64,000 nt of DNA from the NCBI GenBank assembly GCA_964556485.1, contig CAZKVV010000004.1:57618-121617 (forward strand), written 5' to 3'. Below, piece by piece: positions 37,167-64,000 of the stretch (its first letter is position 1; each line of letters starts with the position of its first letter). The translations under genes and the position numbers were made by a program. The notes under the pieces are model-generated. The model searched no databases. It saw nothing but the letters and a program-made list of their open reading frames with translations, and had not been told where the DNA came from. The stretch comes from an uncultured Pseudomonadales bacterium (GTDB lineage Bacteria > Patescibacteriota > Microgenomatia > UBA1400 > PJMF01).

Positions 37167-37172
37167 ACAGAA

Positions 37173-37196: not shown

Positions 37197-37223
37197 CCAA
37201 TACAAACATATTATTTTTTTAAT

Positions 37224-37950: not shown

Positions 37951-39420
37951 ATGAAGCCTTCAAGATTAGTTGCCGTTTTACTTTTTTTTGCAGCAAGTTT
38001 TGTATTTCTGTATCGTTTGGATTACACATCGTTGCAGAGTTTTGATGAGGCATGGTATGCCGTTATTGCGCGTGAGGTTTCACTGAAGGCAAACATACTT
38101 GAGCTTCACTACAATGGGGTTCGCTTTACCGACCATCCACCATTACTCTTTTGGATTATGTCTATTTCGCAAGCAGTATTTAGCAACTATTTCTCTCCAG
38201 AATTTGCTGCCAGATTTCCTTCTGCTGTAATGGGAATTGCTACAGTGCTTCTTGTGTACAAAATGGGTTTGCAGCTTTCCAAAAAATGGTGGGTAGGATT
38301 AGTTGCTTCACTTTTTTTACTTACTTCACTATGGTTTTTATTACGTGCTAAATCTGGAAACTTAGATGTTCCTGTAGTCTTTTTTATGACACTGACAATG
38401 TACTTTGGTCAACAAATACAGATTTTATTGCAAGAAAAAAAACAGCATCTTGCAGTGCAACAATTACTTCCGCTTACAGTTTCTTTTAGTTTGCTTTTAA
38501 TATCAAAAGCTGTTGTTGGGCTTACTTTGATCCCTGCACTTATTGTTGTACTGTTTCCATTATTGTCACAGCTAAAAAATGAAAAAATGAGAAAAGCATT
38601 TCTGCTTTCAGCACTTACTATGGCTGTAATTGTTGCACCTTGGTATGTCTATAATGCCGTTTTAGATTCGAACTTTTTATATCATCATTTTGTTGAGATT
38701 GGTTTGAGAGGTGTTGCTGGATCATCAACTCAGCAATTTGCACTATGGCAAAATCTACTCTATCTGCGCAGCGGCATTGGTGTGTGGTATTGGCCATCAG
38801 TTTTTGGAGTAATTGCTAGTACTTTTGCTATTTGTATAGTAAAAGAGTACCGGCAAAAGGTACTCCCACTATTTTTGTGGTTTCTCATTCCTGCACTATT
38901 GCTGTTATTAAATGCAAAAACACAGATATGGCATTTGCTTCCGCTTTATGTTCCATTGTTTTTAGTAACGAGTTTTACATTAACAGAAGCTATACATTTG
39001 GTAGCATCAAAACTTAAACTTCCTAAGAGATTCAGCATACTACTGCAACTTTTGTTTACCCTATGCGTGTTGCTTTTAGCTAGTAATCAAACAAGAAAAA
39101 GTTTTTCATTGTTCATGCCATCAGTTGTTTCTAAACAGCCTGAGGCGGTACTAGGTGCCCTTGCAAAAGACATTCCAGGAGAACTCTATGTTCTTACTGG
39201 TGAAGGTCCTTCTGCATCTTTTTATGCTGGCAGGAAGGTAACTCCAATTGGTATTCGTCCTAATGCTTATCAGGAAATGGTTGCAATTATGTCATCAGAT
39301 CAAACTGCATTATTCATGGTGCTGGGTGAGCATCTCAATCAGTTCGCTGTAGATGGCGTTGCTTTTGAGACAGTGCATGCTACTCCGTTGCTCACATTAG
39401 TCAGAGGAGTTTCACCTTGA
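37951..39420 (+). CDS. Glycosyltransferase family 39/83 (PMT/ArnT-like) membrane protein
   Basis: N-terminal DEAWYAVIAREV...DHPPLLFWIMSIS is typical of the GT-C ArnT/PMT fold. About 11 TM helices. Confidence 0.7.
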   Translation: MKPSRLVAVLLFFAASFVFLYRLDYTSLQSFDEAWYAVIAREVSLKANILELHYNGVRFTDHPPLLFWIMSISQAVFSNYFSPEFAARFPSAVMGIATVLLVYKMGLQLSKKWWVGLVASLFLLTSLWFLLRAKSGNLDVPVVFFMTLTMYFGQQIQILLQEKKQHLAVQQLLPLTVSFSLLLISKAVVGLTLIPALIVVLFPLLSQLKNEKMRKAFLLSALTMAVIVAPWYVYNAVLDSNFLYHHFVEIGLRGVAGSSTQQFALWQNLLYLRSGIGVWYWPSVFGVIASTFAICIVKEYRQKVLPLFLWFLIPALLLLLNAKTQIWHLLPLYVPLFLVTSFTLTEAIHLVASKLKLPKRFSILLQLLFTLCVLLLASNQTRKSFSLFMPSVVSKQPEAVLGALAKDIPGELYVLTGEGPSASFYAGRKVTPIGIRPNAYQEMVAIMSSDQTALFMVLGEHLNQFAVDGVAFETVHATPLLTLVRGVSP

Positions 39421-48840: not shown

Positions 48841-49482
48841 TTACATTTCATGGTATGGATACGTTATTGGAGAAATCAAAAATGAGATATTGCTTGTGTG
48901 TTCAGAGACATTGTCAACAAAACTGGTAACACAACCAGTGGGTAAATGTAGTTGTCCGGCAGCTACCACTTTTTTACATTGTAATTGCTCTAATCTATTT
49001 GCAATATCTTCGTAAGTAAGACCAGCATCTGGATTTGGACTCGTTTGTGTTGTTGGATACCAAAGTATTGTTCCAGAAAAACCTAAAGCCCTAAGCAAGT
49101 CAAAGCTTTTCTTTTGATATCTTTTCTCTTCACCCACAAGCAATACAGGTACTGCTTTGAGCATATTTTTAAGACGTGAGAAATACCCCATTGAGTTAAT
49201 ACGACTTCTAGATTGTTCAGGTATAAGCAATCGCTGGTTACCTTTGGGCAACTCATAGCCAAATCCTGTTTCTTGTTGTTGAAATGTGTTGATAAGCTCA
49301 TCGATCCCTAATGTATTTAGGTTTTCATCCTTAATTTGCATGTAGAACGGGTGAATAAGTGCAAGCAGAATTCCTGATTTACTTGCAATTTCTGCTTGTA
49401 ATTGAGGTACTGCTGCTTCGAATGTCTGAATATCATTCAAAGAAATTTCAGTTTGAATATGTGGCCGTAACTTTTCGTTCAT
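48841..49482 (-). CDS. Hypothetical protein (213 aa), last gene of the large minus-strand operon
   Basis: ORF 17 nt downstream of the ABC exporter gene. No recognised motif. Confidence 0.45.
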   Translation of the reverse strand: MNEKLRPHIQTEISLNDIQTFEAAVPQLQAEIASKSGILLALIHPFYMQIKDENLNTLGIDELINTFQQQETGFGYELPKGNQRLLIPEQSRSRINSMGYFSRLKNMLKAVPVLLVGEEKRYQKKSFDLLRALGFSGTILWYPTTQTSPNPDAGLTYEDIANRLEQLQCKKVVAAGQLHLPTGCVTSFVDNVSEHTSNISFLISPITYPYHEM

Positions 49483-49499
49483 ACACTGCTAGTTTTGTT

Positions 49500-51389
49500 C
49501 TATGCTACTAGATCCCATTCTCTGAGTTTCTCAACATCTCCAGATTGAATTTTGAATAAACTAGCGTATAAATCGTCTCGCTTCATTAACTCTGCGTGAG
49601 TGCCTTGCTCAAGAATTTTTTGTTCTTTGAAAACAATAATATTATCAGCTCTTTGTATTGTTGAAAGCCTATGGGCAATAATAATTGCTGTCCGGTTGGA
49701 GAGCAATTTCTTTAATGCTTGCTGAATATACATTTCAGATTCTGAGTCTAAGGCGCTGGTAGCTTCATCTAAAATAATTATTTTAGGATCGCGAAGAACC
49801 GTGCGAGCTAGTGACAATCGCTGTCTTTGGCCGCCAGATAACTTTACACCGCGCTCACCAATAATGGTTTTCAATCCTTCGGGGAGTTGAGAAATAAACT
49901 CATCTGCATGTGCTACTTTGCAGGCATCCAACATTTCTGCTTCAGTAGCAGTAGGTTTTGCATATCGTAAATTTTCTTCAATTGTTTCGGCAAATAAATT
50001 TGAATCTTGGCTTACTAATCCTAAATGCAAACGCAAATCATGTTGCTTCATTTCTCTAATATCCACGCCATCAAGCATAATTGAACCTTCTGATACATCG
50101 AAAAATCTCATGATTAAACTGGCAATGGTAGATTTGCCAACTCCGGATGGACCAACTAAAGCAGTAGTTTTATTTGGTTCAATAGTAAATGAAATGTCAT
50201 CGAAAACTTTGAGATTTTCAATCCTAGATGGTTTAACTTCCCGTCCTTTATTAATTTCAGAGTCAAACTCAACAATTTGTTGTGGTTCATAAATAAAGGA
50301 AACATTTTTGAACTCAATTTTGCCTTCAACAGTTTTCAAAGTTACTGGCTTACTGGGGTCAGTAACACGAGGTTGGATGGAAATAATTTTCATGAAATCT
50401 TTAGCACCAATTTGTGCACGTTTAATTTCCCAAAAAATCCAGTTAATTTGCCAGAGTGGTCCACGAATGAGCTGAATTAGTCCGACAAGTAATATCAATG
50501 TTCCCACTGTAATATCTCCCAGCCATGTTAAATACACGATGTATGCGTACATGCTCCAACTGAAAGCTTCTAAAATTAGGTCAGCGCTCACAGCTTTAAA
50601 ACTGTTCCACTGCATTTGGGTACGTAGCGCTAAGTATTCTTTGAAAAAAGCAATGAATTTTTTACGTTCAAAATCTTCCGAACGAAAGGCTTTTATAAGC
50701 TGCATTGAACTAATGACTTCAAAGAAGTGACTATATTGTTCATCGTATAGTTTGTATTCTTGTCTTTCTAAGACCTCATCTTTCTTAAAACGCCAACGAC
50801 TAATGAGGGCGTAAGGAATAAAAGCTATAACAGTTAAAATGGCAACTCTCCATTCATGAAAAACCACAATGCTAAAAGCAACTACGGCAGTGGTAATACT
50901 TGGCAAAGAGTGAATTCCAAAATTACTGACTATTCCAGAGAGTCTGTTTACACCTCTGTCTAACTTGCTCATAACTTTGCCACTTGGCTGGTCATGAAAA
51001 AAATCGAGTGAGAGTCTCATTAAGTGATCAAAACCAATTTGTTTGAGATGCGATTCGAGTTTAACCGAAAATATGTTTGTTATAAAAAAGGAAGTCGCGT
51101 TGAGAATACTTTGAATGATTTTAACCGTAAGTAGGATAAGTAAGGTTGTAAAAATACTTGACCATGCAATACTCGCTTCTTTTTCCACTAAGATGTCGGT
51201 AATTTCTTTTGTAATAAATGGTTCGACCTGATTCAATCCTGCCATAACCACAATTAAAAGTGTTATTGTCAGTAACATTTTCCAATATGGTTTTGCAAAT
51301 GACATTGCACTAAGAAACATAGTTGTGATTTCCGCTATACAATTCCAAATAATGCTTGGAGTTATACCTACACTATACACTTGCTTCAC
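49500..51389 (-). CDS. ABC transporter, fused permease/ATPase (type I exporter, MsbA/bacteriocin-exporter-like, no C39 domain)
   Basis: Six TM helices plus NBD. Walker A GPSGVGKST, signature LSGGQRQRLSLAR, Walker B IIILDEATSALD. Confidence 0.85.
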   Translation of the reverse strand: MKQVYSVGITPSIIWNCIAEITTMFLSAMSFAKPYWKMLLTITLLIVVMAGLNQVEPFITKEITDILVEKEASIAWSSIFTTLLILLTVKIIQSILNATSFFITNIFSVKLESHLKQIGFDHLMRLSLDFFHDQPSGKVMSKLDRGVNRLSGIVSNFGIHSLPSITTAVVAFSIVVFHEWRVAILTVIAFIPYALISRWRFKKDEVLERQEYKLYDEQYSHFFEVISSMQLIKAFRSEDFERKKFIAFFKEYLALRTQMQWNSFKAVSADLILEAFSWSMYAYIVYLTWLGDITVGTLILLVGLIQLIRGPLWQINWIFWEIKRAQIGAKDFMKIISIQPRVTDPSKPVTLKTVEGKIEFKNVSFIYEPQQIVEFDSEINKGREVKPSRIENLKVFDDISFTIEPNKTTALVGPSGVGKSTIASLIMRFFDVSEGSIMLDGVDIREMKQHDLRLHLGLVSQDSNLFAETIEENLRYAKPTATEAEMLDACKVAHADEFISQLPEGLKTIIGERGVKLSGGQRQRLSLARTVLRDPKIIILDEATSALDSESEMYIQQALKKLLSNRTAIIIAHRLSTIQRADNIIVFKEQKILEQGTHAELMKRDDLYASLFKIQSGDVEKLREWDLVA

Positions 51390-53047
51390 CGCAAATCACA
51401 AAACATTTTATTTTTGAATGCTTCGTTTCTATCCCCCCAATATTTCTCGATAAAGTTGCGGAATTCTTTATCTTCTGAGTGTGAGAGACTATGCACTCTA
51501 AGGTTGCTTAATTCATTTAGTATAACAGGCAGCTGGGACGATAATCTCAGTCCAATATGTGATAAAACTATGCTCAATCGATATATTTCTTCTCTATTTC
51601 TAGATTCATAAGTATCAAGAACTAGATTTGTTTTGGCAGATAACAAGGTATGTAGTTGTTTTAAGTATTCAATCATATCTTTTTGCATTCTCGTTAGGGT
51701 TAATCTTTCAAGCCTTGCGAATTTTTCCTCAATTTCCAAGCATTTTTGTTGCAATTGTTCTTTAGCTAGGGCAACAAATTCGCCCAACTGATGGTTTGGA
51801 ATATCTAGGCTGCAAAAGTGAGCTAGGGTTTCTTCAAAATATTGAATTCCAAGCGCATCTCTAGAAATACCCACTAAAATTTCATCTAATCGATTCGTTC
51901 GTTCTTCATCATTCCATTCCGAGTCATCACCATAGATCTCACCAGAATTTGTCATAATAGGCTGCATAAAAATGATTTTATGATCAAGAAATCGTCGTAT
52001 TTCATTTCTACTTTCGTTTTTATCACTTTTAATTTTTAAGTACATCCATATTGAATCGAACATAAACAATCGACCATCTTGGATGGGCAATTCAAAATTT
52101 CCTGTTCGATTTATTGGTGTTGCTGCTACCATTGAAACTGAGCGAGAATTATCTGGTGAGAGAACAACCCCATCTAAACAAGCGGGTGAACCAATATCTT
52201 CCATTGCATCTTGTCGTTCTAAATTCTTTCCTACAAGCTGAAGACCTTTGCCACTTTTTGCATCTTTCGGTTTCACATCAATCATCTGTTTCATGAGAAA
52301 GTTAACATGATTTTTTGATAATCCACGTTCATATAATTTTTTTTCAATCAGCGCTAAACACACTTCTGCTCTTTGTGCATTGTGCCCACTAATGCTGAGG
52401 TTTATTTTGGTTGGACAAGAATAAGTTTCAATCGAAATGTCAACAATTCTTAGTGCCAAATCCACAAATACATCTTGAGAGCCAGTCGGTAAAGATGTAT
52501 TAATTGTTCTAGTCATCACGGGGCATTTGACTAATAGAAGTTGGTATACATCCAATGCAGTTTTCTCACCATCTCGATAATCTAAAAAATCGGTGTTGAA
52601 ATACGGATAGACTTTGTAAGGAGCATTGTCTTGAATTTGTTGTCCATATTTTGTAAAGAATGCTTGCATGGAATTAAAACTAAATGTATGAGTGATTCCC
52701 CTCGGTTTTTCGCCTAAGAAGCAATAACTACAACCGCCATTACATCCTCTGGTAAATTCAATTGCAACAATATTTTTTAAGATAAATTCTTTTGTTGAGT
52801 CGTCAAAATTTTCAAATGTTTTCAGTAGATCAATATGTTTTACGCGCTCTGCATTAGCACTGTGTTCTGGCTGTAAAAACCACATCTGTTCTAATGCAAC
52901 TCTAGCTTCATTTCGGACACCTTCGTCAAAACTTCCCGACATTGCCAGTAGATCTTGTTTACCAGCCTTTGGACTCACGCCCCACTCCATCATCATGAGG
53001 AATTCTGTTGCTAGTTGGGGGTTTACCTCACTGAGATCATTACACAT
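51386..53047 (-). CDS. Radical SAM enzyme (553 aa, non-SPASM), function unknown
   Basis: CxxxCxxC cluster motif in AIEFTRGCNGGCSYCFLG. 4-nt overlap with the ABC exporter gene. Confidence 0.7.
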   Translation of the reverse strand: MCNDLSEVNPQLATEFLMMMEWGVSPKAGKQDLLAMSGSFDEGVRNEARVALEQMWFLQPEHSANAERVKHIDLLKTFENFDDSTKEFILKNIVAIEFTRGCNGGCSYCFLGEKPRGITHTFSFNSMQAFFTKYGQQIQDNAPYKVYPYFNTDFLDYRDGEKTALDVYQLLLVKCPVMTRTINTSLPTGSQDVFVDLALRIVDISIETYSCPTKINLSISGHNAQRAEVCLALIEKKLYERGLSKNHVNFLMKQMIDVKPKDAKSGKGLQLVGKNLERQDAMEDIGSPACLDGVVLSPDNSRSVSMVAATPINRTGNFELPIQDGRLFMFDSIWMYLKIKSDKNESRNEIRRFLDHKIIFMQPIMTNSGEIYGDDSEWNDEERTNRLDEILVGISRDALGIQYFEETLAHFCSLDIPNHQLGEFVALAKEQLQQKCLEIEEKFARLERLTLTRMQKDMIEYLKQLHTLLSAKTNLVLDTYESRNREEIYRLSIVLSHIGLRLSSQLPVILNELSNLRVHSLSHSEDKEFRNFIEKYWGDRNEAFKNKMFCDLR

Positions 53048-53049
53048 TT

Positions 53050-53247
53050 TTATGCATCCCTCTTGATCATGCGCAGCTCAATCTCAGCCATTTTTTTTAT
53101 AGCATTCACCATTTGCCTAACGTATTCTTCTTGATTTGGGCAAAGCTTTTCTGTCTTCTGTTTAGGTTTGTAAGTTTGATTCATATAGTGTGATATCACA
53201 CTCTGATTTTTTTGAGAAAAATCGGAGTCATTTTTAGTTGTCCACAA
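53050..53247 (-). CDS. Small ORF (65 aa) translationally coupled to the radical SAM gene, possible precursor or accessory peptide
   Basis: TTG start 9 nt after a GAAGG. Its stop lies 2 nt before the rSAM ATG and the rSAM RBS AGAGGGA sits inside its 3' end. C-terminal amphipathic helix. Confidence 0.35.
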   Translation of the reverse strand: MWTTKNDSDFSQKNQSVISHYMNQTYKPKQKTEKLCPNQEEYVRQMVNAIKKMAEIELRMIKRDA

Positions 53248-53268
53248 CGTGTTGTTGCCTTCAGCTTA

Positions 53269-56200
53269 TTAAGCAGCATCAATCAATTGTTCAACCCTCT
53301 GTCGTTGTTCATATTCGCCGATTTTTGGCAAAACAACTAGCTTCACGGCATTTTTAACACTTTTTTGATCAAACTCCTCTAAGTCGAAGATGATTTCTTC
53401 GGTTTCACGCTGAGTGAATACAAACTCTACGATGTCGTTTGATTCATTTCGTTGATAAGCGCGGTAAGCTTGACGTACTTTGTTTGCAATTCTTACTAAG
53501 AGGTCTAAGGCACTAATGGCTTGTAACCGCTCTGGCGTAGCGAATATATCTCCGCCATTAACCGCATCACCATTAACCGCATGGTTCCACAACTTCGTAA
53601 ACTCCTCCTTATTGAGTGTTCTCAAATCCTCAGCTCGTTGAGCAAGAATGAAGGCTTCGTCAGGACGTTTTCTGACCTTTGTGAATCCTTCAGTTGATTT
53701 GCCACTTGGGACTGTTTGAGTTTCAACATTAACTCGCTCGTACTCTCCATTAACTTTTTCAATCACGTTGTAAGGTTGGTAATCTACTTCTATCACTCTG
53801 GCACGGCTCTTAAACTCTTGTGCCAATGGCTGAGTACCAATATAGTTTTCTGGATTCATGGTGCCAATGAGCAAATTATCTGGATGTACTTCAATCTTTT
53901 GTCCGATGCCATTGGTGTTAAGCTCAACATAATCAGGGTCTTCACCTTGAGTGAAGTACAACGTGCGGCGGTAGTCAAAAACCGAGTTTAACATTTTAGT
54001 TACTTCTGCAGGCATGGCGTTAATTTCAATCAAGTTGATAATTACACCAGGTTTAGAGAGAGCTTCAGCAAACTTAGCGGGTACGCGATAAGTGCCTTTC
54101 TTGGGATCGAATCTGAACTCTGAAGTAAGATCCTCGGGGTCCATTGTTTTGCGACAGGGAATATTAACTACTTCGTAATTTGTTAAGGCTCCAAATGCGT
54201 CAATATTAAAGTCTTTGCCCACACCAGCGTCACCTTGCATGATTAGCAATCCTCTTGGAGTTCTCACTCGGTTCAGTTGTTTATCCAAACCCAACTGTGC
54301 TCGCAAGTTACGCGCCATATTACCGAGTACTTCTAAAGTGTATTCGGTCATCCTAAGTTCGCGACTAAGTGGAGGAACTTCACGTTTGGGATTAAAGTGC
54401 GTTTCCGCACGAGCTTTAGCTTTTTGATAACGAGGATCACTGTCGTCGACCCTCATATTCATGTAGACACCACTGCGCCAAATCCCAGCATTCTGACTCT
54501 CGAAAGCTAGTTCACCTTTATACTCAGCTCTTTGGTCGGCAGTAAGTTTTGAGAAGTCAATTTTCTTACCATCTGTACCCCAAACGATGGGCGTTACCCA
54601 TCCTGGAGAGAAGAGTATCTGGCGATCCCTGAATGTTGGGAATGCTTCACCAGCTAGTACTCTAACTTTCTCGCGCTCTATTGTTTTAGTCGCTTCTTTT
54701 TCTTGTTCGAACCGCTGAACTCTTTCCCGAAGGAGAGAAAGATACTGTTGATCATAATCAGCACGGCGACTCTCAGGAAGATGATTGATCAACTGTCTAA
54801 CACGTTCAGAGCGTGGATGGTTAAATGCCCATGCTTCAAGATTAATTCTACCCTCAGTCTCACCCAAGACCGCATCAATATCTTCCTGAAGTTCGCGTAA
54901 AGCCTCGGCTATCTCTCGAACAACTTCCTCAACTCTTGCTTCTTGTTCTCTTTTTCTTTCATCTGTTTTTGTCTGAATCTCTGAGCGTTTCTTCTGGCGG
55001 ATCTCACCCCAAGCAACTCTCAAGCGTCGTCTTTCTTTAGCATCGGTAACGAGATTTAATCTAGAGTTAAACCGTTCGACGACAGGATCTTTCTCCAACT
55101 CACTTAATTCGTTGATGCTCAGCGCTGGTTGAATAGCGGCTTCCATTTCCGACAACATCCCTTCCAAAGAAGTGACGAGTTGGCCTTGGAACTCCTTCTG
55201 TAATTCAACAATTCTTTCGGAGGAATGCTCAAGGCTTGTTTGAACTTTATTTCTCAAATCACCTTCTAGCACCTGCAGGTTTGCTGACTGCCGCATTTGA
55301 CGAACTTCTTCAAGCCTTTGCGCTACAGCAATGCTTTGTTCTATGGTTGTTGCCAGGCGGACACGTTGTTCCAAATCCTCAACAGCTTCCACTAAGACCT
55401 TTGCCTTAAACTCGTTTCTTCTTCTTTCAAAAGCTTGTTGCACTGTGGCAAAAGCTTCTGGGTACTGCTGATAGGGGTCTTTTTTTCTTAAAACTGAGAG
55501 CTTTGCCTCTAGTTTAAGCAGAGCTTGTTCATCGGTTGCTGACTGAACTAATGGTAAAAATTCTCCCTCTAATTTAACCTTCAGAGCTTCCTTAATATCG
55601 TCATTACTGACTGTTTTTTCTTGTTTTCTCTGTAGTGCAGTTACCTTTTCTTCGAGATCATTCGCAACAATATTATCTATGTCTAATTGTTCGATCTCTG
55701 AAAGTAGTGCCTTCATCTTCTGTCGTTGCTCTTCTAACATTCGCGACATTTGCTCGGGATCAAACTGAGCAAAGTTGGTGGTAATAATTCTTAGTTGGTT
55801 GTTGTCGTCAACAAAGTAGAGATTGCCAGCCTTATCTGCGCCAACATTACTTTTAATTCCTGCAAATGCGTAGTGTTTAGTCCGAGATTTCTTATCGAAA
55901 ATAGTTAGCTGATTATCACCATGCTTAACAATAAGAAAATTGCCTCGAGGATCCATAATTACTTGTTGGATATTGTCTACATCGAGCAAATCAATTGTTT
56001 CCGAATTAAGAAAACCGCTTTCCATGCCAGTTAGTGAAAACTTATGAAGTTTTCCATTCTCCGTAAAATAAACAGTATCACCATCTGAAGGATCGAGCAC
56101 AGGGCGAGGATCAGACAATGCTCTAATTTGTCGCTCAAAGCCACTTTCATTTTTGTTATAGATTCGGGTTATTGTCTGACCATCAGACACTGCATAAATA

Positions 56201-56895
56201 CCTGTTTTATTCTTAAATAGTGGCAAAACTTCGCTTGGAGATTTTTTCCAGTTTTTTAGGTCAGGTCCATCGACAGCCAGTGCAACCGCCTCACCCATAA
56301 TTTCGAGTGTGACAATATTACCATCCACCGACATTACTGTTGTTGGTCTTTTAATTAACTGCTCGTCACTAACCATACCGATATGATGATCTTTTAAATC
56401 TGAGGGTGATAAAAACCACGAATCAACAGTTTTTTTTTGACTCAAACTAGTCTGTTGAAGTATCTTAACTGCAAGTTTCTGAATTTCTTCTCTATCCTTT
56501 GACGCATCTAGCCCGGGAACAAATTGGGCAATTATTTTATTAAGATTCACTCCGCCAAATTGTTTAACAAAAGCCTCTGTTCCGATAAAATTTCTGTCGC
56601 TTGTTTTTAATGCTACTAAAGCTAATTGAATAATTTTTCGGCATGTAAAGCTTGTCCTGATGTTTGGAAAAATTTCTTCCAAACTCTTCATCTGACCCTG
56701 TGGAGAAATAACGACTATGTGAGAGCTAGTACTTTTTGAAGCAAAAACCCATCCATTTTCAAGAACAGCCACCGATGATAAGTCTGTGTTTGTTTCTGAT
56801 GCTGATGTCTTGAAATAATCTGGAGAATGAAGGATGGTCTGTGGTGCAGGAACTTTTGTTTCATGCAAATTTTTGTTAAATTCTGTCATATTCAT
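53269..56895 (-). CDS. Giant protein: beta-propeller-like N-terminal region, ~500-aa coiled coil, C-terminal dynein-related AAA_5 (MoxR-like) ATPase domain with degenerate Walker motifs
   Basis: LLIMQGDAGVGKD (Walker A with Lys-Asp), VIINLIEINAMPAEVTKMLNSVFDYRRTLYF (AAA_5 llDEiNla...r region with IE for DE), LLIGTMNPENY...SRARVIEV (sensor1/Arg). Long heptad-like E/R/K/Q-rich stretch at aa ~370-800. Confidence 0.65.
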   Translation of the reverse strand: MNMTEFNKNLHETKVPAPQTILHSPDYFKTSASETNTDLSSVAVLENGWVFASKSTSSHIVVISPQGQMKSLEEIFPNIRTSFTCRKIIQLALVALKTSDRNFIGTEAFVKQFGGVNLNKIIAQFVPGLDASKDREEIQKLAVKILQQTSLSQKKTVDSWFLSPSDLKDHHIGMVSDEQLIKRPTTVMSVDGNIVTLEIMGEAVALAVDGPDLKNWKKSPSEVLPLFKNKTGIYAVSDGQTITRIYNKNESGFERQIRALSDPRPVLDPSDGDTVYFTENGKLHKFSLTGMESGFLNSETIDLLDVDNIQQVIMDPRGNFLIVKHGDNQLTIFDKKSRTKHYAFAGIKSNVGADKAGNLYFVDDNNQLRIITTNFAQFDPEQMSRMLEEQRQKMKALLSEIEQLDIDNIVANDLEEKVTALQRKQEKTVSNDDIKEALKVKLEGEFLPLVQSATDEQALLKLEAKLSVLRKKDPYQQYPEAFATVQQAFERRRNEFKAKVLVEAVEDLEQRVRLATTIEQSIAVAQRLEEVRQMRQSANLQVLEGDLRNKVQTSLEHSSERIVELQKEFQGQLVTSLEGMLSEMEAAIQPALSINELSELEKDPVVERFNSRLNLVTDAKERRRLRVAWGEIRQKKRSEIQTKTDERKREQEARVEEVVREIAEALRELQEDIDAVLGETEGRINLEAWAFNHPRSERVRQLINHLPESRRADYDQQYLSLLRERVQRFEQEKEATKTIEREKVRVLAGEAFPTFRDRQILFSPGWVTPIVWGTDGKKIDFSKLTADQRAEYKGELAFESQNAGIWRSGVYMNMRVDDSDPRYQKAKARAETHFNPKREVPPLSRELRMTEYTLEVLGNMARNLRAQLGLDKQLNRVRTPRGLLIMQGDAGVGKDFNIDAFGALTNYEVVNIPCRKTMDPEDLTSEFRFDPKKGTYRVPAKFAEALSKPGVIINLIEINAMPAEVTKMLNSVFDYRRTLYFTQGEDPDYVELNTNGIGQKIEVHPDNLLIGTMNPENYIGTQPLAQEFKSRARVIEVDYQPYNVIEKVNGEYERVNVETQTVPSGKSTEGFTKVRKRPDEAFILAQRAEDLRTLNKEEFTKLWNHAVNGDAVNGGDIFATPERLQAISALDLLVRIANKVRQAYRAYQRNESNDIVEFVFTQRETEEIIFDLEEFDQKSVKNAVKLVVLPKIGEYEQRQRVEQLIDAA

Positions 56896-56919
56896 TCACA
56901 TTATTAACTATTACTTTTT

Positions 56920-59235
56920 TTATTGGCCCTGCCTAAGTCTTTGACCTATTCTTCTCAAAATTGGCGTCATCACTCTCCTGGTTTCTATCGTCAGTTGACC
57001 CATGTTTTCGGGAATTATTACTCTATCTTCCCCAAAATATGTGTCTAAGCCAGCTTTTATTCGTTGCTTTTCATCCCGACTATTGGATAGACCAAAAGCG
57101 AAAAGCTCAAATACCTTTTTGATCTCGTCGATTTTTTCTACTAACGGTTGGCCGGTCAAACCACTGTTTGGTTCACCGTCTGTAAGAAACATAATAACAC
57201 CCTGTGAACCAGGAAATCTACGTCTTGAAGCGAGCAATTGTTCGTAGGCACTCACTACACCAGCTTCGTAGTTGGTACTACCATGCAATGATTTCGTTTG
57301 AGCAATGAGTTTGGCCTTAATTCGTTGTTCAGGAGAGGAGAATGGTTGATTAGGGTTTTTAAGCACTGATGAATTAGAACCCATAGTAATGATTCCAGAT
57401 GGAATGTTGTACTTCTCACACAACATCATCCACAAAATAAGATCTTTTAAAGATTCGTCTAACTTAGCGCCATGCATGCTGCCCGTAATATCGATAACAA
57501 ACCAAATGAATGTTTCAATTTTTTGCGATAATTCAATATCCTTTCTTGTATTAAAGCGACTGTCTCCAACGGGGAATTTACGAGCTGCCTGACGAGCGTC
57601 AGGTCTACCCGAATAGAAATAACCTTGCTGAGTCATGATCCACTCACGAGGGAATGCTTTCATCACTTGCTGATCCATCGATCTGAAATCAGCCATCATT
57701 TCGCGTTCCAACTCCTTGTATCGATCGTAGTTACCCTCTTCATCTTCTCTAAAACCAGCCTCTCTCATTTCGCGAAGTTTTCGTTCTTTTTGCTCGCGAG
57801 CTTTTTGTTTGGCTTCCTGTTTTTGTTGCTCAGCTTGTTGTTGTTGTATGTCGTGTTGTTCACGCTGTTGCTCTTCTTTCTCAAACTCTTCCAATTCCTT
57901 CTGGGCTTTTTCCACTTCTTTTTGATCAGCTGTTTGAATCTTTGGCTTGAATTCACCAGTTTCTTCATCTTGCTCCATCTGTATCATCTGTGGTGCTTCT
58001 TTATTAAGCTTTTCACTTTGTTTTTGATCGGTTTGTTTGCGAGCATCTTCTTCAAGTTTTTCTAATGCTTGAGGATTAAGATTTTTCAAAAAAAACTCCA
58101 GTTGCTCGCGTGTTTCAGTAGAGAGTTCATTCAAATCCATCTCACACTCACTTGTTTCTGGATTTTCTCCTTGGCTTCCCGGTCGTTGCTCATCAGGTTG
58201 AGCGCTAGATTGCCCCTCTGACTGTTGAGAACTTTGCAAGCCGCTTTGTCGTCCGGATTGTGATTGTTTAGATTGGCTAGAGCTTTGGCTTCCTTGCTGC
58301 ATTTCCTGTTTGATCTTTTGTTTCAAATCTTCAGGAAGTTGAGGTTGTCCGCTGCCACCCCGTCCATCTTGACCCTCATTGCCTTGCCGACCCTCCATGG
58401 CTTGTTGAGCCATATTCCTTTTTACTTGATCCTCAACTTCTTCCTTCTCGAGGTCTCTTACTTGCGGCCAAATCTCTTCAGAAAATGTGTGGAAATTTTC
58501 CAGTGCAGACTTACTGGCGTAAAAACGATCAAGTGCTGGTCGCACTTTATCCATAACTGCTTGTACTCGCTCGTCTATACTAGGCAAGTCTTGGCCTGTT
58601 AACCAGTAATTGATAGCGTTAACACCAAACTGACGTGGTAGGGGATCATGAGGAATCTGGGTGGCAATTTCCTTAAGTTTACGCAAGTACCCACGTTTTA
58701 GATCTTCAAGCGCCGCTTGGGATTCTCCGGCAGACATGGCGTTAACCCAACCATCTTCGGGACCATTAAGCAGCGATCCATAGGTCGATGGTAGGAATCC
58801 TTGTTCCTTAGCCAATCTCATCCCTTGAAAAAAGAATTTGAAATCTGAGTGAGCAGCGTGGGCAGCCTCGTGTCTTGTTTTCCTGGTAATTTCTATCTCA
58901 GGATCACGGTATAAATCGTTCTTTCTAAAAGTGATGAGATTGGGAACTAAAGCCTGAGGAGGCAGGTGATCTAGATTGTCAATTTTACCACAAATATATG
59001 CATCAACAGCTTGAGCGTATTCTGGGTCAATACCACAAGTCCATGGTCCTTCGCCATCTAGTGCCGCAATCTTAAGGTCATAACGACCACTGAAAACCCT
59101 TGAAAGCCATGAAATCTGTTTCATTACCCTTCGAATTTCTTCCGGCGATCGCCTTTCATCATCTAATAGTTTGTTTTCAGATATAGATGAAGGGCTAATA
59201 GCCTCACCCGGCATACGGGAGATTTTTTCAGACAT
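56920..59235 (-). CDS. vWA (MIDAS) domain protein with N-terminal HExxH zincin-like domain and central Q/E/K-rich coiled-coil linker (DUF2201-like architecture)
   Basis: HEAAHAAH near aa 110. About 250 aa of low-complexity QQ/EE/K repeats. C-terminal FVIDITGSM (DxTxS MIDAS) ... FLTDGEPN vWA fold. Confidence 0.7.
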   Translation of the reverse strand: MSEKISRMPGEAISPSSISENKLLDDERRSPEEIRRVMKQISWLSRVFSGRYDLKIAALDGEGPWTCGIDPEYAQAVDAYICGKIDNLDHLPPQALVPNLITFRKNDLYRDPEIEITRKTRHEAAHAAHSDFKFFFQGMRLAKEQGFLPSTYGSLLNGPEDGWVNAMSAGESQAALEDLKRGYLRKLKEIATQIPHDPLPRQFGVNAINYWLTGQDLPSIDERVQAVMDKVRPALDRFYASKSALENFHTFSEEIWPQVRDLEKEEVEDQVKRNMAQQAMEGRQGNEGQDGRGGSGQPQLPEDLKQKIKQEMQQGSQSSSQSKQSQSGRQSGLQSSQQSEGQSSAQPDEQRPGSQGENPETSECEMDLNELSTETREQLEFFLKNLNPQALEKLEEDARKQTDQKQSEKLNKEAPQMIQMEQDEETGEFKPKIQTADQKEVEKAQKELEEFEKEEQQREQHDIQQQQAEQQKQEAKQKAREQKERKLREMREAGFREDEEGNYDRYKELEREMMADFRSMDQQVMKAFPREWIMTQQGYFYSGRPDARQAARKFPVGDSRFNTRKDIELSQKIETFIWFVIDITGSMHGAKLDESLKDLILWMMLCEKYNIPSGIITMGSNSSVLKNPNQPFSSPEQRIKAKLIAQTKSLHGSTNYEAGVVSAYEQLLASRRRFPGSQGVIMFLTDGEPNSGLTGQPLVEKIDEIKKVFELFAFGLSNSRDEKQRIKAGLDTYFGEDRVIIPENMGQLTIETRRVMTPILRRIGQRLRQGQ

Positions 59236-59462
59236 GTTTTTATAGTATCAAAGTATGGGTGAAACTTACACGAATAGATCAAACGCGATTTTTTTAATAA
59301 GCCCATTACAGGTCTGTTAAATTGAAAATGTTTAAAATGAGGAAATTTAGCAAGCCCTGCCAACCCATTTGGCGGTATTAGACGGGTCTGTTAGAACTTT
59401 TCAACTGTTGCGGAGCACCCGGGTCTGGAACCTTTTTATCCTAATACTGAACTATGTAAGCT

Positions 59463-59657
59463 CTAGTCGTTTTCCAGCCATGGACCCTCTTTAATGATGT
59501 TCCTAAGAATTTTCATTTGTTGAACTGATAGTTTTAGTAACTCACCTAAATCTTTTTTGAAATCTTCATTAATAGCTATTTCTTGAAGAGATTCATATTT
59601 TTGAGCCAATCTAGATTCAGCTGCTAATGCTTCAGCGATGTCTGCAATGTTTGCCAT
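59463..59657 (-). CDS. Small helical protein (64 aa), hypothetical
   Basis: ATG ORF MANIADIAEALAAESRLAQKYESLQEIAINEDFKKDLGELLKLSVQQMKILRNIIKEGPWLEND. RBS AAAGGAG 6 nt upstream. Flanked by TCTGTTAGAAC direct repeats. Confidence 0.4.
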   Translation of the reverse strand: MANIADIAEALAAESRLAQKYESLQEIAINEDFKKDLGELLKLSVQQMKILRNIIKEGPWLEND

Positions 59658-59862
59658 AACAAGCTCCTTTCATATGTTAATCTAATTATAGATCACTGTA
59701 GTTTGGATCATCGGATGCGGAGACTAAGGAACTCTGTTAGAACCTGGTTTAAGTCCTCAGATCTAGACGGATTTTACATATACTCGCCATCCTTTGCATA
59801 GATTCAAGTTTATTTTAACTGGTTAGTCTTAATATTGGACACTTCGCACACGGGTTTGTGGA

Positions 59863-62800
59863 CTAAATCAGATAAAATGTGTGTACTGTCTTGGAACTTG
59901 AAATCTGGAATGAATGACTGATTCTTGCTTCAGGTTTATAAAATCTTAAGGCTAAATACTTATCAACTCCCTCGCCAACTCGATTTGTTAATGGATGCCA
60001 ACTGTCTTGTTCAGGAATCATCACCTGAGAGATTCCATTGTCTGCTGCGATCTGCATAACCATATCAACCATCTGATCGCATAAAACTGCAGTATTTGTC
60101 GAAGAAATAATACTAGAAGATGGATTGAAGCCTCTGAAAATCAAAGTTGGTTGATTATCAACGGTTGTTTGATATCCTTGAATATTCCCTACAACAATAC
60201 CTTGATTATTGACTAAATTAACATGAAAATGATCTGGTCGGTGATATAACTCTATATCATGAGCCGTACACACTCCTGCAGTAGTCTTCGCAAAATATGA
60301 GGCTGCGTTTTTTGTAACATATCCAGTTAATATTAAGGTTGGGTCAACCTCTTGCCCCGCTTTATCTCTAAGTACAACTTTTCCTAATTCTGTTTCTACA
60401 CGCTTCCTCAGTCCTTTTGATCCAGAAAACATTGTTCTTTCAGTCATGAATGCTAAAAGTTTGGCTAAGTGCTGGCGTTTTTCAACAACGGACTTATTTT
60501 CGCGTAAACCAGAAATAATTGATGCAAAAGAGGCTTTTTCCTCTTCTCTCATTATCCTTGATCCACCAATATTTTTCTCCAAAGTTGCAAGTTTTTTCTC
60601 AGTCAACATACTGAGCAAACGGTCAGACACCATTGGATTTTCATCTAAAAACTTTGCGACTGCTTCACCTGCATTATCTTTATAATAAACCCCAAATAGT
60701 TCTTTAGCTTTTGATAAAAGGTTATTTTTATCAGCAACTTGAGAAGTGTCTCCAGTCATTTTTTCTGTATATTGATCAATTTTATCTCCGAGCGATACAC
60801 GCAAGCATGCAATCACTTCTTGTAGAGAGGATGTAAATAAATCCTCAGTTTTGGTTGCACCTGCCTCGGTTAATAATCGAGTCCAGCCTTTTAAAGCCAT
60901 CGCAGTATCACCACCAGAGGCAATGTAATCAGACGTTTGTTCGTTTCTAAATATGACTTTAACTAAATTAACAACTCCTTCGTCAACTGGTTTGTCCGCA
61001 CTTCTTAATTCAGCTACTTTTTCTTTTGAAGCAATGCTTCCTCGATATCCACTCTCTCGAAAATGCATTCCACTAATATCATCACAATGATCACCAACTC
61101 TAGCTAGCTCTAACCTAACAGAATTAACATCTGTACTTGGAAATGTTAAGCAAATCATTTCAGCCATGAAGTCTATGCCACTACTTCCACTCGTTAAATC
61201 CATAAGTGGCACATTCCTATGAACATTTTTACGGAATGCTTTTACCCTATCCCTGTGATTTTCCCTAGAAAGCTCATCTGCTTCTAATATGTAACCCCTA
61301 ACTAATGATGGTGTGATATTTCTAAACTCTTCCATTGCTTCCAAAAGACGCTCTGTGTATAAGGGGTTAGTCATGATTCTAGCAACATCTTCGCCTGAAA
61401 TTGTCTGAAACGTTGTTACACAGCTATTAAAACTAGTGGGTTTGGTGTTTAGCATCCTTTTAAAGAATCTGGCGTACCCATCTTGTTCTAGGTTAGCTTG
61501 TAACCAATCTAATGACGACTTCGTTGTATAAAAAACATTTTGACTATTCAAGCCAATTGTCGCCCCCAATTGATGTAAGTAAGCTGGCCGAACTTGAGAC
61601 AAAATTTGATTGGTTTGAGGATTTTGTACTAAACTCCTAAATCGGTCGAAATCTGTTAATTTCCAGCCTGCGGACATCATGTGAGCCGACAAAACTCCGT
61701 TTTGCTCCCAATATGAGGCTCTATCTGGAATTAAAGCATCATATTTAGGATCGTTTGATTGGTCATGAAATCTTGCCAATGTTTGGATATATTCGACTGA
61801 TAATTCAAACCCATACGCAACTGCAAATGGCGCTATAAATGAATTACTCAGATTCCCGTTTTCAGCTAAGTCTTGTGATAGTGCATCATACACGTCATTA
61901 AAATGACGCGCACACATGTCTTTATCATTTTGTATTCCAATTATTAAACTTGCTCTAATTTCGCGTTTTTCAGCATTGTTGAATGTGGAAGCATCAAGAT
62001 TGTAGTCGGCGAGAAAACTTTGTGGCTGTTCTTTGGCAATTAGTCCCACTAAAGCAGATGTGGCTTTATGATCATCGACAAGAGTATTAAATATTTCTTT
62101 TTTGCCTATTAGTACTTTTTTAAGATATCCTTTCGCTCCCTTCCAATATCTCCAGTATTTCTGTGTTTCTTCTGGCATTTGTTCTAATGCCTGCTCAGTG
62201 ACCAAAGAGGCAAGAGTGTCTAACTCAACAGTCTGGCTTGTGGACAATTCTGTCAATAAATGTTCAGACGCCGATCCATTTACGACATACGTATTAATTT
62301 CTTCTCTTCTTTCTAGTATGAATCCATGCAACTCGTCCTCGTCATGTTGTCGCCAAAAATCCCAAAAGACCTTTCCTTCAGCCGTCATTCCTGCCAACGC
62401 TTCGTCGGAAATTAATGATGTAATTAATCTGTCGCCGACCCGCAATCTGTCTGATACTAAATTCTCTAATAATAGCTCCGTCGCCACACCATTAACAACC
62501 AATAAATCAAAATTCGATCTTTGCTTGATTAGATAATCATGCAAAACGTCAGCATCATGTTTCTTCCAGAAGCCCCAAAATTTTTCCCCTTCATCGCCCA
62601 TGGATTCCAAAGCGTCCTTTGTGATCATCCATGTCGCTTCTCTGAATATATTTTCTTTATTTCTATTACGAATAGTGTCACGACCAGATGATTCGTCTGC
62701 ACCTGAAATTAATTCATCGAGCCATTTTTGGGTTGGCACACCTTTTTCATTGACATAAGAGTCTATGTTGAAATCAGCTTCTCCCCGATGCCTAGTTAAT

Positions 62801-64000
62801 AATTCTATATAAGCATTAATCCCCGATGTTTTTGCTTTATTTCGACCATAATGTAGCTGAGGATTTGCATAAGAATCTGCCTGATGGTCAATGAGTAAAA
62901 ATAGCCTTTGACCGTAACTCTCATTACTGGCTAACTCGCATAAAAACCCCAAGGAAACTTTTCGATTGCCTCGGTTGTCTTCCATTTGAACACTAAATTC
63001 GGCGTCTTGATTTAGTTGATGAGCAAATTGCCACACGCATTGTCTACCAGTATCTTTGAGTCCAAAATACTCTCTAAGATCATTTGCCGATATTACGTTT
63101 TGACAATATAAACTTGGGATTTCAACTCCAACTCGTTTCAGTTCTGAAACCAATCTTTGCCTATCATCGTCGTTAACACCTGATAAAGTTTTAAATATTT
63201 CAACCGTCTGGCTGTTAAACGTTGCAAGAGGATTATTTAGTTCTTCCCTCAGTCTCAATATTTCATCATTAGGAATGGTTGCGAGTATTTTTAGTGTTAA
63301 TAAATCAGAGTTTGAGCGCACACAAAAACCGTCTGATGTTAATAATTTTTGTCTTTGAGCAATTATCTCGCGCTTTTTATATATACTAAGCCATTCATCT
63401 GGATTACGAAGAATAGTATCCCACTGTTCGCCTTGATTATTATTGTTTTGAAGTACGATACTAACAAACGCTCTATCTAGTCCCATCTGTCTTACTTCTG
63501 GTCTCAATAGTGTTTGTACTCTACCTTTCATTTCTTCAATAGTTATTTTTTCCTGGCCTATAACAGTTATCACATTCAACTTTGATGATTTTAAGTCATC
63601 AGATATCTCAGACAATGGTTTGAACACTTCCCGTACTTCTTCCAAAGAGAAATCCTTTAAAGAATCACCAATATCCTGCCATAAGTAATATCTGCTTAGC
63701 GCCCCATCTCCGCCGTCTTGATCCCTCGTCAAAGTTGTGCCTGTTAATTGCGTTATTAATAAAGATTTTTCTAATCTATCTGGATCAGATTTCCTAACAT
63801 AGTCTTTAAAATCGTATCCATCCGCACTCAAAGGCATTTTCCGACCGTATTTAGCTAGAACTCTAGCATTTTGTCTTAATGAGTCGTTTGCGCAAACAGC
63901 TTTAAAGCTAGCTTGATGATTTTCTACAAAAACTTTCGGGTTTGCGGAATCTGTAGTGCTGCGATCATTAAAATGAAATCCCCAACTTACATCAAACCCG
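59863..64000 (-). CDS. Giant hypothetical protein (over 1324 aa) with three internal ~65-aa repeats. Reading frame stays open to the window edge, so it is possibly N-terminally truncated here
   Basis: First ATG at 63837, but the frame has no stop from 63838 to 64000. Repeats contain (F/Y)WxFWK ... VVNGxAxELL motifs. No TM or signal peptide. Confidence 0.6.
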   Translation of the reverse strand, partial: GFDVSWGFHFNDRSTTDSANPKVFVENHQASFKAVCANDSLRQNARVLAKYGRKMPLSADGYDFKDYVRKSDPDRLEKSLLITQLTGTTLTRDQDGGDGALSRYYLWQDIGDSLKDFSLEEVREVFKPLSEISDDLKSSKLNVITVIGQEKITIEEMKGRVQTLLRPEVRQMGLDRAFVSIVLQNNNNQGEQWDTILRNPDEWLSIYKKREIIAQRQKLLTSDGFCVRSNSDLLTLKILATIPNDEILRLREELNNPLATFNSQTVEIFKTLSGVNDDDRQRLVSELKRVGVEIPSLYCQNVISANDLREYFGLKDTGRQCVWQFAHQLNQDAEFSVQMEDNRGNRKVSLGFLCELASNESYGQRLFLLIDHQADSYANPQLHYGRNKAKTSGINAYIELLTRHRGEADFNIDSYVNEKGVPTQKWLDELISGADESSGRDTIRNRNKENIFREATWMITKDALESMGDEGEKFWGFWKKHDADVLHDYLIKQRSNFDLLVVNGVATELLLENLVSDRLRVGDRLITSLISDEALAGMTAEGKVFWDFWRQHDEDELHGFILERREEINTYVVNGSASEHLLTELSTSQTVELDTLASLVTEQALEQMPEETQKYWRYWKGAKGYLKKVLIGKKEIFNTLVDDHKATSALVGLIAKEQPQSFLADYNLDASTFNNAEKREIRASLIIGIQNDKDMCARHFNDVYDALSQDLAENGNLSNSFIAPFAVAYGFELSVEYIQTLARFHDQSNDPKYDALIPDRASYWEQNGVLSAHMMSAGWKLTDFDRFRSLVQNPQTNQILSQVRPAYLHQLGATIGLNSQNVFYTTKSSLDWLQANLEQDGYARFFKRMLNTKPTSFNSCVTTFQTISGEDVARIMTNPLYTERLLEAMEEFRNITPSLVRGYILEADELSRENHRDRVKAFRKNVHRNVPLMDLTSGSSGIDFMAEMICLTFPSTDVNSVRLELARVGDHCDDISGMHFRESGYRGSIASKEKVAELRSADKPVDEGVVNLVKVIFRNEQTSDYIASGGDTAMALKGWTRLLTEAGATKTEDLFTSSLQEVIACLRVSLGDKIDQYTEKMTGDTSQVADKNNLLSKAKELFGVYYKDNAGEAVAKFLDENPMVSDRLLSMLTEKKLATLEKNIGGSRIMREEEKASFASIISGLRENKSVVEKRQHLAKLLAFMTERTMFSGSKGLRKRVETELGKVVLRDKAGQEVDPTLILTGYVTKNAASYFAKTTAGVCTAHDIELYHRPDHFHVNLVNNQGIVVGNIQGYQTTVDNQPTLIFRGFNPSSSIISSTNTAVLCDQMVDMVMQIAADNGISQVMIPEQDSWHPLTNRVGEGVDKYLALRFYKPEARISHSFQISSSKTVHTFYLI

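Follow-up and report, generated by a model that had tools for sequence, protein, structure and literature searches.

The 64,000-nucleotide (nt) stretch of contig CAZKVV010000004.1 analysed here (the window, a term we use for the whole of that length) closes with a 15-kb run of eight co-oriented open reading frames (ORFs) on the minus strand. An earlier reading, made from the sequence alone, had treated this run as one functional system, in which large von Willebrand factor A (vWA) and MoxR-type ATPase proteins would be coupled to a radical S-adenosylmethionine (rSAM) enzyme, an ATP-binding cassette (ABC) exporter and the giant and small ORFs around them. All eight ORFs were recovered by our ORF scan and translations, coordinates included; what we correct is the attractive, unsupported step from this layout to a 'super-operon'. 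On balance we think it likely that three or more independent units make up the run as a mosaic, and that unit A is a self-contained two-gene module. In this arrangement (i) unit A would be the conserved system, a vWA–AAA_5 pair; (ii) unit B would join, by translational coupling, a small conserved peptide gene to that of a divergent radical-SAM-like enzyme, as a peptide-modifying pair resembling those of ribosomally synthesised and post-translationally modified peptides (RiPPs) and (iii) unit C would comprise a giant repeat-bearing orphan ORF and a 64-amino-acid (aa) ORF. We read the run as a local juxtaposition because only the vWA/AAA_5 and small ORF/rSAM-like pairs persist in relatives. Domain identities, invariant motifs and conserved pairings are observed for these genes, and synteny between the units is absent. 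The run is laid out as follows, with the distance from each gene to the next.

59863 to beyond 64000, minus strand: giant ORF (ORF scan and translation); 205 nt to the 64-aa ORF
59463-59657, minus strand: 64-aa ORF (ORF scan); 227 nt to the vWA gene
56920-59235, minus strand: 771-aa vWA protein (ORF scan, Pfam VWA); 24 nt to the AAA_5 gene
53269-56895, minus strand: 1208-aa AAA_5 ATPase (ORF scan, Pfam AAA_5); 21 nt to the TTG of the small ORF, 84 nt to its ATG
53050-53247 or 53050-53184, minus strand: small ORF, 65 aa from a TTG at 53247 or 44 aa from the in-frame ATG at 53184 (ORF scan); stop 2 nt before the rSAM-like start
51386-53047, minus strand: 553-aa radical-SAM-like enzyme (ORF scan, CNGGCSYC motif); 4-nt overlap with the ABC exporter gene
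49500-51389, minus strand: 629-aa ABC exporter (ORF scan, Pfam); 17 nt to the 213-aa ORF
48841-49482, minus strand: 213-aa ORF, the last of the co-oriented run (ORF map)

The run stops at the 213-aa ORF because a convergent plus-strand ORF ends at 48823 (ORF map).

Loci for comparison were collected by encoding-contig look-ups, a GTDB scan (which returned only a Candidatus Shapirobacteria metagenome-assembled genome, MAG) and a metagenome scan. Loci counted as informative if their AAA_5 homologue was full length and sufficient upstream DNA was present; they come from metagenomes and from one Candidatus Shapirobacteria MAG. In all 18 informative loci a vWA homologue, recognized by hidden Markov model (HMM), lies directly upstream of the AAA_5 gene (14 complete, 4 edge-truncated), at a spacing of mostly ~9-31 nt, and the expectation that a MoxR-class AAA_5 protein is paired with a vWA partner is thereby confirmed by adjacency as well as by profiles. 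Neighbour clustering of these loci returned no third conserved neighbour, the only other clusters being antisense shadow ORFs within both genes, and the flanks vary from locus to locus (queuosine genes, SHMT, a purF-like amidophosphoribosyltransferase, a tRNA synthetase, ribosomal protein L33). A 65-aa ORF that follows the AAA_5 gene in one locus (L006) was considered as a conserved third gene and rejected, its sequence being unrelated.

The remaining genes of the run behave quite differently from the pair. None of the rSAM-like, small peptide, ABC exporter, giant or 213-aa genes occurs in any of the 18 pair loci, and a phmmer comparison with the 3828 ORFs of 96 loci left the giant, 64-aa, small and 213-aa ORFs unmatched. 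In the same comparison the rSAM-like protein had matches only in loci L012-L016, and at no locus did the ABC exporter lie in synteny with either pair. The rSAM-like homologues (53-62% identity) are found in two independent contexts, ordered DUF8201 / 49-aa ORF / rSAM-like / Exo_endo_phos in one and GLF / small ORF / rSAM-like in the other; beside the rSAM-like gene in L012-L016 there is no vWA, AAA_5, ABC exporter or 213-aa gene. The sequence-only reading had itself held that its coupling would fall if the genes proved non-syntenic in relatives, and the gene-neighbourhood comparison finds them so from both sides, with the pair alone at 18/18 loci and the rSAM-like gene without vWA, AAA_5 or exporter in both of its contexts.

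These distributions bear directly on the view that all eight genes form one system, a new type of NTP-dependent conflict system in which a giant MoxR/vWA machine would be combined with RiPP-like rSAM modification and ABC export. Co-orientation and short junctions favor such a system, as does the conserved small peptide gene that does precede the rSAM-like gene, and there is a precedent in FtsH-type MoxR–vWA ternary systems, where a stand-alone radical SAM enzyme may be present, with a peptide effector as its predicted substrate (PMC7159879). We nevertheless consider it very unlikely, given the absence of its other components from every pair locus (0/18) and of vWA/AAA_5 from the rSAM-like contexts (0/2), the 205- and 227-nt gaps that flank the 64-aa ORF, the palindrome-bearing spacer that precedes the small ORF and the lack of an FtsH-like or other third component.

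Several points weigh against the mosaic nonetheless. The stretches separating the units show no significant terminator or promoter (counts do not clearly exceed those in shuffles), so all eight genes could still be co-transcribed in this genome. The outside contexts of the rSAM-like gene number two independent ones, and conflict systems as a rule vary in their accessory genes. Co-transcription aside, conserved functional coupling across the units is not supported.

The ATPase of the pair has the following regions and nucleotide-binding motifs.

aa 1-250, minus strand: hypervariable N-terminus
aa ~251-385, minus strand: last β-propeller blades
aa ~386-760, minus strand: helical/coiled-coil-like stalk of ~375 aa, 61% E/K/Q/R/L/A
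aa ~871-1050, minus strand: single AAA_5 module, followed by a C-terminal helical domain (Pfam)
aa 888-895, window 54210-54233, minus strand: Walker A, GDAGVGKD (alignment)
aa 953-960, window 54016-54039, minus strand: Walker B region, NLIEIN (alignment)

A propeller-like part, a coiled coil and an AAA_5 domain had been proposed for this protein, and each can be identified. The AAA_5 module is matched by Pfam at E 2.1e-13 in the window's protein and in 10/10 family members (best 8e-26); residues 261-369 match the designed 'Pizza' β-propeller (E 4.8e-7, phmmer against the PDB), with DPxGNF and LR..TNF motifs conserved in this segment of the family alignment; and the E/K/Q/R/L/A-rich stalk is helical or coiled-coil-like. 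Four positions of the AAA_5 module are invariant in the family alignment: K894, E957, the sensor-1 residue N1014 and R1031. Searched against the PDB, the family profile matches CbbQ (1e-12), Midasin AAA3 (6e-12) and NorQ (3e-5). An apparent closest relationship to Midasin (E 3.6e-29) was rejected, as that value sums several modules and the best single module, at 47 bits, is close to CbbQ at 49.8 bits.

The N-terminus of the ATPase diverges far faster than its other parts. Identity over the first 250 aa is 47% to the closest relative, although the zincin domains of the two agree at 87%, and falls to 11-21% elsewhere, compared with 40-67% for the ATPase module. This fast N-terminal evolution relative to the rest of the protein suggests that the stalk carries an end devoted to specificity or sensing. 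The AAA_5 C-terminal module recurs in two shorter subfamilies. Those of ~935-942 aa (L034-L061, e.g. L054 8510-11338) have no vWA gene of the pair's family detected nearby, and proteins of ~550-590 aa (L064-L066, L071) are preceded by a 650-720-aa vWA/HExxH homologue, sometimes with one gene between. The existence of these forms suggests gain or loss of the stalk and propeller relative to an ancestral pair of simpler build.

The vWA partner is likewise composed of clearly separable parts.

aa ~30-270, HEAAH at window 58858-58872, minus strand: gluzincin-like HExxH...ED domain
aa ~271-560, minus strand: Q/E/S-rich acidic and helical linker (~290 aa)
aa ~561-771, minus strand: C-terminal vWA domain with an intact metal-ion-dependent adhesion site (MIDAS)

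The protein has homologues at 47-74% identity, one of them from a Candidatus Shapirobacteria MAG, and the order of N-terminal zincin-like domain, linker and C-terminal vWA domain is the same in all homologues. Pfam VWA matches the C-terminal domain at E 2e-7, the MIDAS residues (DxSxS...T...D) are intact in 12/12 homologues, and structure comparison shows a resemblance to NorD. At the other end of the protein, H122, E123, H126, E160 and D161 are invariant in 17/17 homologues, down to ~23% identity. The HExxH...E(D) arrangement is a gluzincin-type signature, and the predicted structure of the domain has a β-sheet followed by the motif-bearing helix. Its matches in Pfam are all sub-threshold (Peptidase_M48 in 7/17, best 0.02; Peptidase_M1, 0.004), and the structure search isolated no match for the HExxH domain itself. 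The architecture proposed for this protein from its sequence (HExxH motif, Q/E-rich middle part, vWA/MIDAS domain) is therefore upheld, as is the observation that both partners are several-fold larger than usual MoxR and vWA proteins. Its assignment to a DUF2201-type family is not, since DUF2201 and DUF2201_N are unmatched at E <= 1 in 11 full-length proteins and at E <= 10 in 17 N-terminal domains.

What might such a pair do? By analogy with NorQ–NorD, CbbQ–CbbO and Midasin, we infer a mechanism in which the AAA_5 ATPase would form a ring that docks the vWA/MIDAS domain of its partner. ATP hydrolysis would then pull or twist the ~290-aa acidic/helical linker of the vWA protein, and this movement would switch or position the gluzincin-like peptidase domain on a target that the variable propeller end of the ATPase selects. 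The result would be a split, ATP-regulated protease or remodeller. A related arrangement is seen for NorQ, whose hexamer binds a single NorD by taking its VWA finger into the pore and remodels the linker of that protein (PMC9976466, PMC13036017). On these analogies the pair is most likely an ATP-driven remodeller that controls a metallopeptidase.

Ring formation, MIDAS docking and peptidase regulation are proposals made on these analogies, and peptide modification by unit B is likewise a proposal. Against the mechanism, the nucleotide-binding motifs are unusual: Walker A reads GK[DN] across the family and never the canonical GK[ST], and the window's clade (GKD, NLIEIN) is without the Walker B Asp. 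Together, the non-canonical Walker A and the absent Walker B Asp indicate that ATPase catalysis may be altered. ATPase activity of the AAA_5 module is possible, given the invariant Lys, Glu, sensor-1 Asn and Arg.

We also note that the two Walker motifs apparently covary. In a count that leaves out 17 sequences matched at an upstream [YF]E[FV][DN] (with Y before the Glu in 16 and F in 1), 64 GKN sequences retain the Walker B Asp (hhhhDEIN), and 10/11 GKD sequences have I, V or G at the Asp position; P0044 (GKD, LFNEIN in the alignment) follows the same pattern with N. The covarying sequences (P0021-P0170 plus the alignment) fall into at least three sequence groups, and these counts ignore kinship. 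The pattern may reflect a relocated Mg-binding acidic residue, with the Asp of GKD swapped for that of Walker B.

The output of the pair may be protein maturation or quality control, or else a conflict or sensing role, and the evidence is mixed: the lack of a PADLOC match and the housekeeping neighbours contrast with a rare, patchy family that has a diversifying end. Searched exhaustively with HMMER, the AAA_5 protein gave 310 matches at E <= 1e-3 in 1.84 billion representatives, ~50 of them full length (1050-1230 aa); a word-indexed search with the same protein returned only itself, and all proteins of the window are singletons at 90% identity in the public protein collection. Such a distribution, together with the variable genomic neighbourhoods and a fast-evolving N-terminal/propeller region in proteins whose ATPase, zincin and MIDAS parts are conserved, would fit a compact two-protein system for conflict or threat sensing, in which the variable propeller end would sense an invader or host cue, the AAA_5 ring transduce the signal and the vWA-linked peptidase act as effector. 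The logic of propeller sensor, MoxR ATPase and vWA protein has precedents (PMC7159879, PMC13622651), and the pair would be a binary counterpart of the MoxR–vWA ternary systems and of the Esr-type propeller–MoxR–vWA pathways. Such a system seems improbable to us, however, because the effector is not diversified (the same zincin domain is present everywhere), there is no third component, the neighbours are housekeeping genes and not defence islands, the PADLOC defence models give no match for the pair, and the pair is not found on viral contigs, where two weak AAA-only matches were the only return. A viral origin of the pair or of the rSAM-like gene was considered separately and rejected; the viral contigs gave no match to the rSAM-like family.

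The housekeeping flanks in relatives point in another direction, to an assembly chaperone of the NorQD, CbbQO or RavA–ViaA type, which would insert a metal into, or remodel, one specific enzyme complex and whose HExxH...E site would bind or deliver a metal without cleaving peptides. It fits with this that CbbQ gives the AAA_5 module its highest score and NorQ matches it too, that the vWA domain resembles that of NorD and that MoxR/VWA couples typically serve in maturation (PMC9976466, PMC13036017). Against it, no conserved client gene adjoins the pair in any locus, and a hypervariable N-terminus would be unusual for a chaperone with one fixed client. Moreover, a full HExxH with a downstream E is the catalytic signature of gluzincins, and the weak matches of the domain are to peptidase families (M48 and M1). 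We regard a chaperone role of this kind as unlikely.

A remodeller controlling a metallopeptidase thus remains our preferred reading of the pair. That it represents a class of split ATP-dependent protease or sensor not described before, in ultra-small bacteria of the candidate phyla radiation (CPR) type, in effect a two-protein equivalent of the sensor–MoxR–vWA–effector systems with a relocated Mg-binding residue, is a more specific proposal that we put forward tentatively and with some doubt; the literature that we searched holds no description of this architecture. MoxR/vWA couples are widespread and their mechanism is understood in few cases (NorQD, CbbQO, RavA–ViaA, Midasin). The present family would add an architecture with separated, conserved parts, comprising a target-selecting propeller on a stalk, an AAA_5 motor and a putative zincin output, in CPR-like reduced genomes that keep few genes this large. 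Because these parts are so visibly separated, the pair could be a tractable model for control of an enzyme by a MIDAS–AAA_5 interaction.

Unit B contains the second pairing that persists outside the window. The 553-aa protein carries its CNGGCSYC motif at aa 102-109 (window 52721-52744, minus strand) and has a helical extension at the N-terminus and a helical domain of ~170 aa at the C-terminus; C102, C106 and C109 (CX3CX2C) are invariant in 5/5 homologues. The earlier identification of this protein as a radical SAM enzyme stays plausible, on a weaker footing than had been supposed. In its favor are the invariant CNGGCxYC and the consistent weak match to TIGR04517 (rSAM_PoyD), found with 5/5 homologues (best E 7e-5; 21.9 bits against a cut-off of 325). 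Apart from TIGR04517, the sub-threshold matches are nearly all to rSAM peptide maturases, and 7 of the 10 families matched are rSAM families. On the other side, Pfam Radical_SAM (PF04055) scores 15.3 bits, below its cut-off of 29.5, and covers only the Cys motif, and a profile search of the PDB with the protein gave no match. The AlphaFold2 model has low confidence (mean pLDDT, the per-residue confidence score, of 59) and an alternating β/α core; Foldseek returned nothing at E < 0.1 for this model (best 0.16), with TIM-barrel enzymes and one rSAM enzyme, OxsB, among the weak matches. The protein is probably a divergent radical SAM enzyme.

The small ORF immediately upstream has homologues at L012 9862-10011 and L016 5058-5282, in each case upstream of the rSAM-like gene. 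In these three lineages (window, L012 and L016) its stop codon lies somewhere between 2 nt ahead of the rSAM-like start and 11 nt past it, and its product ends in a conserved helix, ...Y[VI]xQ[MI]xx[AS][ILM]xx[MI][AL][ER][IL]EL[RQ]M, whose amphipathic C-terminal motif reads ...MAEIELRM..., ...ILRLELQM... or ...MAELELRM... according to the lineage. The 65-aa ORF had been described as ending 2 nt before the rSAM start, and this is correct; the window's product is most likely the 44-aa form that starts at ATG 53184. The TTG-started 65-aa form is absent from the protein collection in an exact look-up of that form only. Annotation would probably miss the small ORF, which is called as a 49-aa gene in L012-L015; it has no match in Pfam, NCBIfam or PADLOC. 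The small ORF and the rSAM-like gene form a conserved pair of their own, translationally coupled and missed by annotation pipelines, and the small ORF is a candidate precursor or partner peptide.

One further element sits in the spacer that separates the small ORF from the AAA_5 gene.

53187-53202, no strand assigned: perfect 16-nt palindrome AGTGTGATATCACACT, 2 nt upstream of the small-ORF ATG and preceded by an A/T-rich hairpin (53200-53228)

The palindrome occurs only once in the window and might serve as an operator or mark the border of two modules. Its significance is weak, with a match of <=3 mismatches in 30/100 shuffles. A terminator or structured RNA in the same spacer was considered and rejected, as its fold is not significant (z = -1.46).

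Like the rSAM RiPP maturases (PoyD-like epimerases, SPASM proteins), the rSAM-like protein has the CX3CX2C motif, its best weak matches in those families and a coupled upstream small ORF. It differs from them in profile scores far below the family cut-offs and in the lack of any recognisable SPASM/twitch Cys cluster or RiPP recognition element. The small peptide, for its part, differs from RiPP precursors in being a charged amphipathic helix with no obvious core. In this genome the likeness to a RiPP cluster extends to the ABC exporter downstream, although the exporter is without a C39 domain and is not conserved with the maturase.

The exporter was correctly recognized: the 629-aa chain contains both ABC_membrane (Pfam 1.9e-31) and ABC_tran (2.7e-32), matches an MsbA-like NCBIfam model at 4e-114, below the equivalog cut-offs, and is a half-size MsbA/HlyB-like exporter with a six-transmembrane (TM)-type ABC_membrane domain in which TM-like windows are seen. 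Pfam detects no N-terminal C39 peptidase domain. The 213-aa ORF has no match in Pfam, NCBIfam or PADLOC. The small ORF, rSAM-like, exporter and 213-aa genes are tightly packed and may be co-expressed in this genome, and this packing makes a RiPP-like modify-and-export cassette plausible here. Note that the exporter and 213-aa genes follow the rSAM-like gene in this genome only, and that L012-L016 contain no dedicated exporter or protease conserved with it.

Unit C lies at the other end of the run. The giant ORF has no stop to base 63999, so that at least 1378 aa are visible and its 5′ end lies beyond the window edge, as the sequence-only reading had recognized along with internal repeats. Two features can be placed within it.

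62014-62646 (aa 452-662), minus strand: three tandem ~70-aa repeats, each with a [FY]WxFW-type motif (pairwise Smith–Waterman)
59887-60369 (aa ~1211-1371), minus strand: C-terminal domain (tblastn against plasmids)

The repeats give pairwise scores of 67-142, compared with 22-24 ± 4.5 for shuffles (z = 9.7-26.5). The giant ORF has no match in Pfam, NCBIfam or PADLOC, no PDB sequence match, no match to phage sequences and no TM-like segment in its visible part. Its C-terminal ~160 aa distantly resemble the C-terminus of a 1092-aa hypothetical protein of Ralstonia solanacearum/Burkholderia plasmids (25% identity; tblastn E 1e-5 in 7 records; pairwise BLASTP E 5e-14), the matching region being the C-terminal end of the coding sequence at 35007-38285 of CP076121.1 (L099). 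Both proteins share the motifs A..FAK..A..CT, P[ST]L[IV].R..NP and IA..NG...P..D..H.L[ST]N, and the plasmid gene adjoins genes for a UvrD helicase and an AAA ATPase. The sole profile hint for this domain is a sub-threshold Pfam match to Scabin-like ADP-ribosyltransferase (E 0.019), and the domain may be a shared enzymatic or toxin-like end of large proteins. The 64-aa ORF has an AAGGAG Shine–Dalgarno sequence 7 nt upstream, and its exact protein exists in the public collection; it has no match in Pfam, NCBIfam or PADLOC and is not conserved beside the pair in related loci.

Elsewhere in the window, Rfam matches are confined to four tRNA genes (4147-4219, 20700-20782, 21632-21705 and 21736-21821), and the remaining genes encode glycosyltransferases (GT4, PMT), an Na/Ca exchanger, a DUF4395 protein, a cupin and a transglutaminase-like protein. 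Such a content is in keeping with an uncultured bacterium of small genome, and the genome looks CPR-like (Patescibacteria, Shapirobacteria-like).

How does the vWA–AAA_5 pair compare with known systems? It has the AAA_5 module, the MIDAS and the conserved adjacency by which a MoxR-class/vWA couple is defined, and lacks the canonical Walker motifs. The closest parallels are NorQ/NorD and CbbQ/CbbO, in which neighbouring genes likewise encode an AAA_5 ATPase of one module and a vWA protein whose MIDAS is intact; in NorD, too, a long linker lies N-terminal to the vWA domain (PMC13036017). The pair departs from them in several respects: (i) its ATPase is ~4 times larger than NorQ or CbbQ and carries the hypervariable N-terminus, β-propeller and ~375-aa stalk; (ii) its Walker A is GK[DN] and not GK[ST]; (iii) its vWA partner bears an HExxH...ED domain that NorD and CbbO do not have and (iv) no conserved client gene (nor or cbb) accompanies it, and the vWA gene comes first.

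Midasin (Rea1/MDN1) shares AAA_5 modules with the pair (best AAA3, 47 bits), as well as an acidic linker that leads into a C-terminal MIDAS. Six AAA modules and the MIDAS are, however, contained in one 5000-aa chain in Midasin, whereas the pair has a single module and places the MIDAS on a separate protein. Midasin is also without a peptidase domain, in contrast to the peptidase-like domain of the pair's vWA protein.

DUF2201_N and DUF2201 (PF13203/PF09967) constitute a putative metallopeptidase and a vWA-like domain encoded next to MoxR ATPases. The pair shows the same combination of an N-terminal HExxH, a C-terminal vWA domain and an adjacent MoxR-class gene, but its vWA protein is ~2 times longer, contains the ~290-aa acidic/helical linker and has no profile match to these families.

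The ternary conflict systems (VMAP, iSTAND, FtsH, β-propeller; Kaur, Burroughs, Iyer & Aravind 2020, PMC7159879) had been named as resembling the run, with the reservation that its architecture is distinct. They share with the pair a core of MoxR-class ATPase and vWA protein, a β-propeller, a coiled coil and a variable, presumably sensing, region, and some of the FtsH type carry an rSAM enzyme and a peptide (PMC7159879); the window's own rSAM-like and peptide genes are non-syntenic with the pair in relatives. The resemblance fails on the component that defines these systems, as neighbour clustering shows no conserved third gene beside the pair and Pfam, NCBIfam and PADLOC reveal no domain of that sort in the window ORFs. 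The arrangement of the parts differs as well. The extra domain on the pair's vWA protein is N-terminal, invariant and zincin-like, whereas theirs is a C-terminal variable effector, and the propeller is on the ATPase of the pair but on the vWA protein in the ternary systems. Furthermore, the pair occurs in CPR-like genomes and the ternary systems in multicellular bacteria.

A last comparison, with the FtsH-type AAA+ zinc proteases, is one of functional analogy only, in that an AAA+ ATPase is combined with an HExxH zinc peptidase. FtsH belongs to a different AAA+ clade and holds ATPase and peptidase on one membrane-anchored chain, whereas in the vWA–AAA_5 pair the two functions would be divided between two soluble proteins, presumably joined via the MIDAS.

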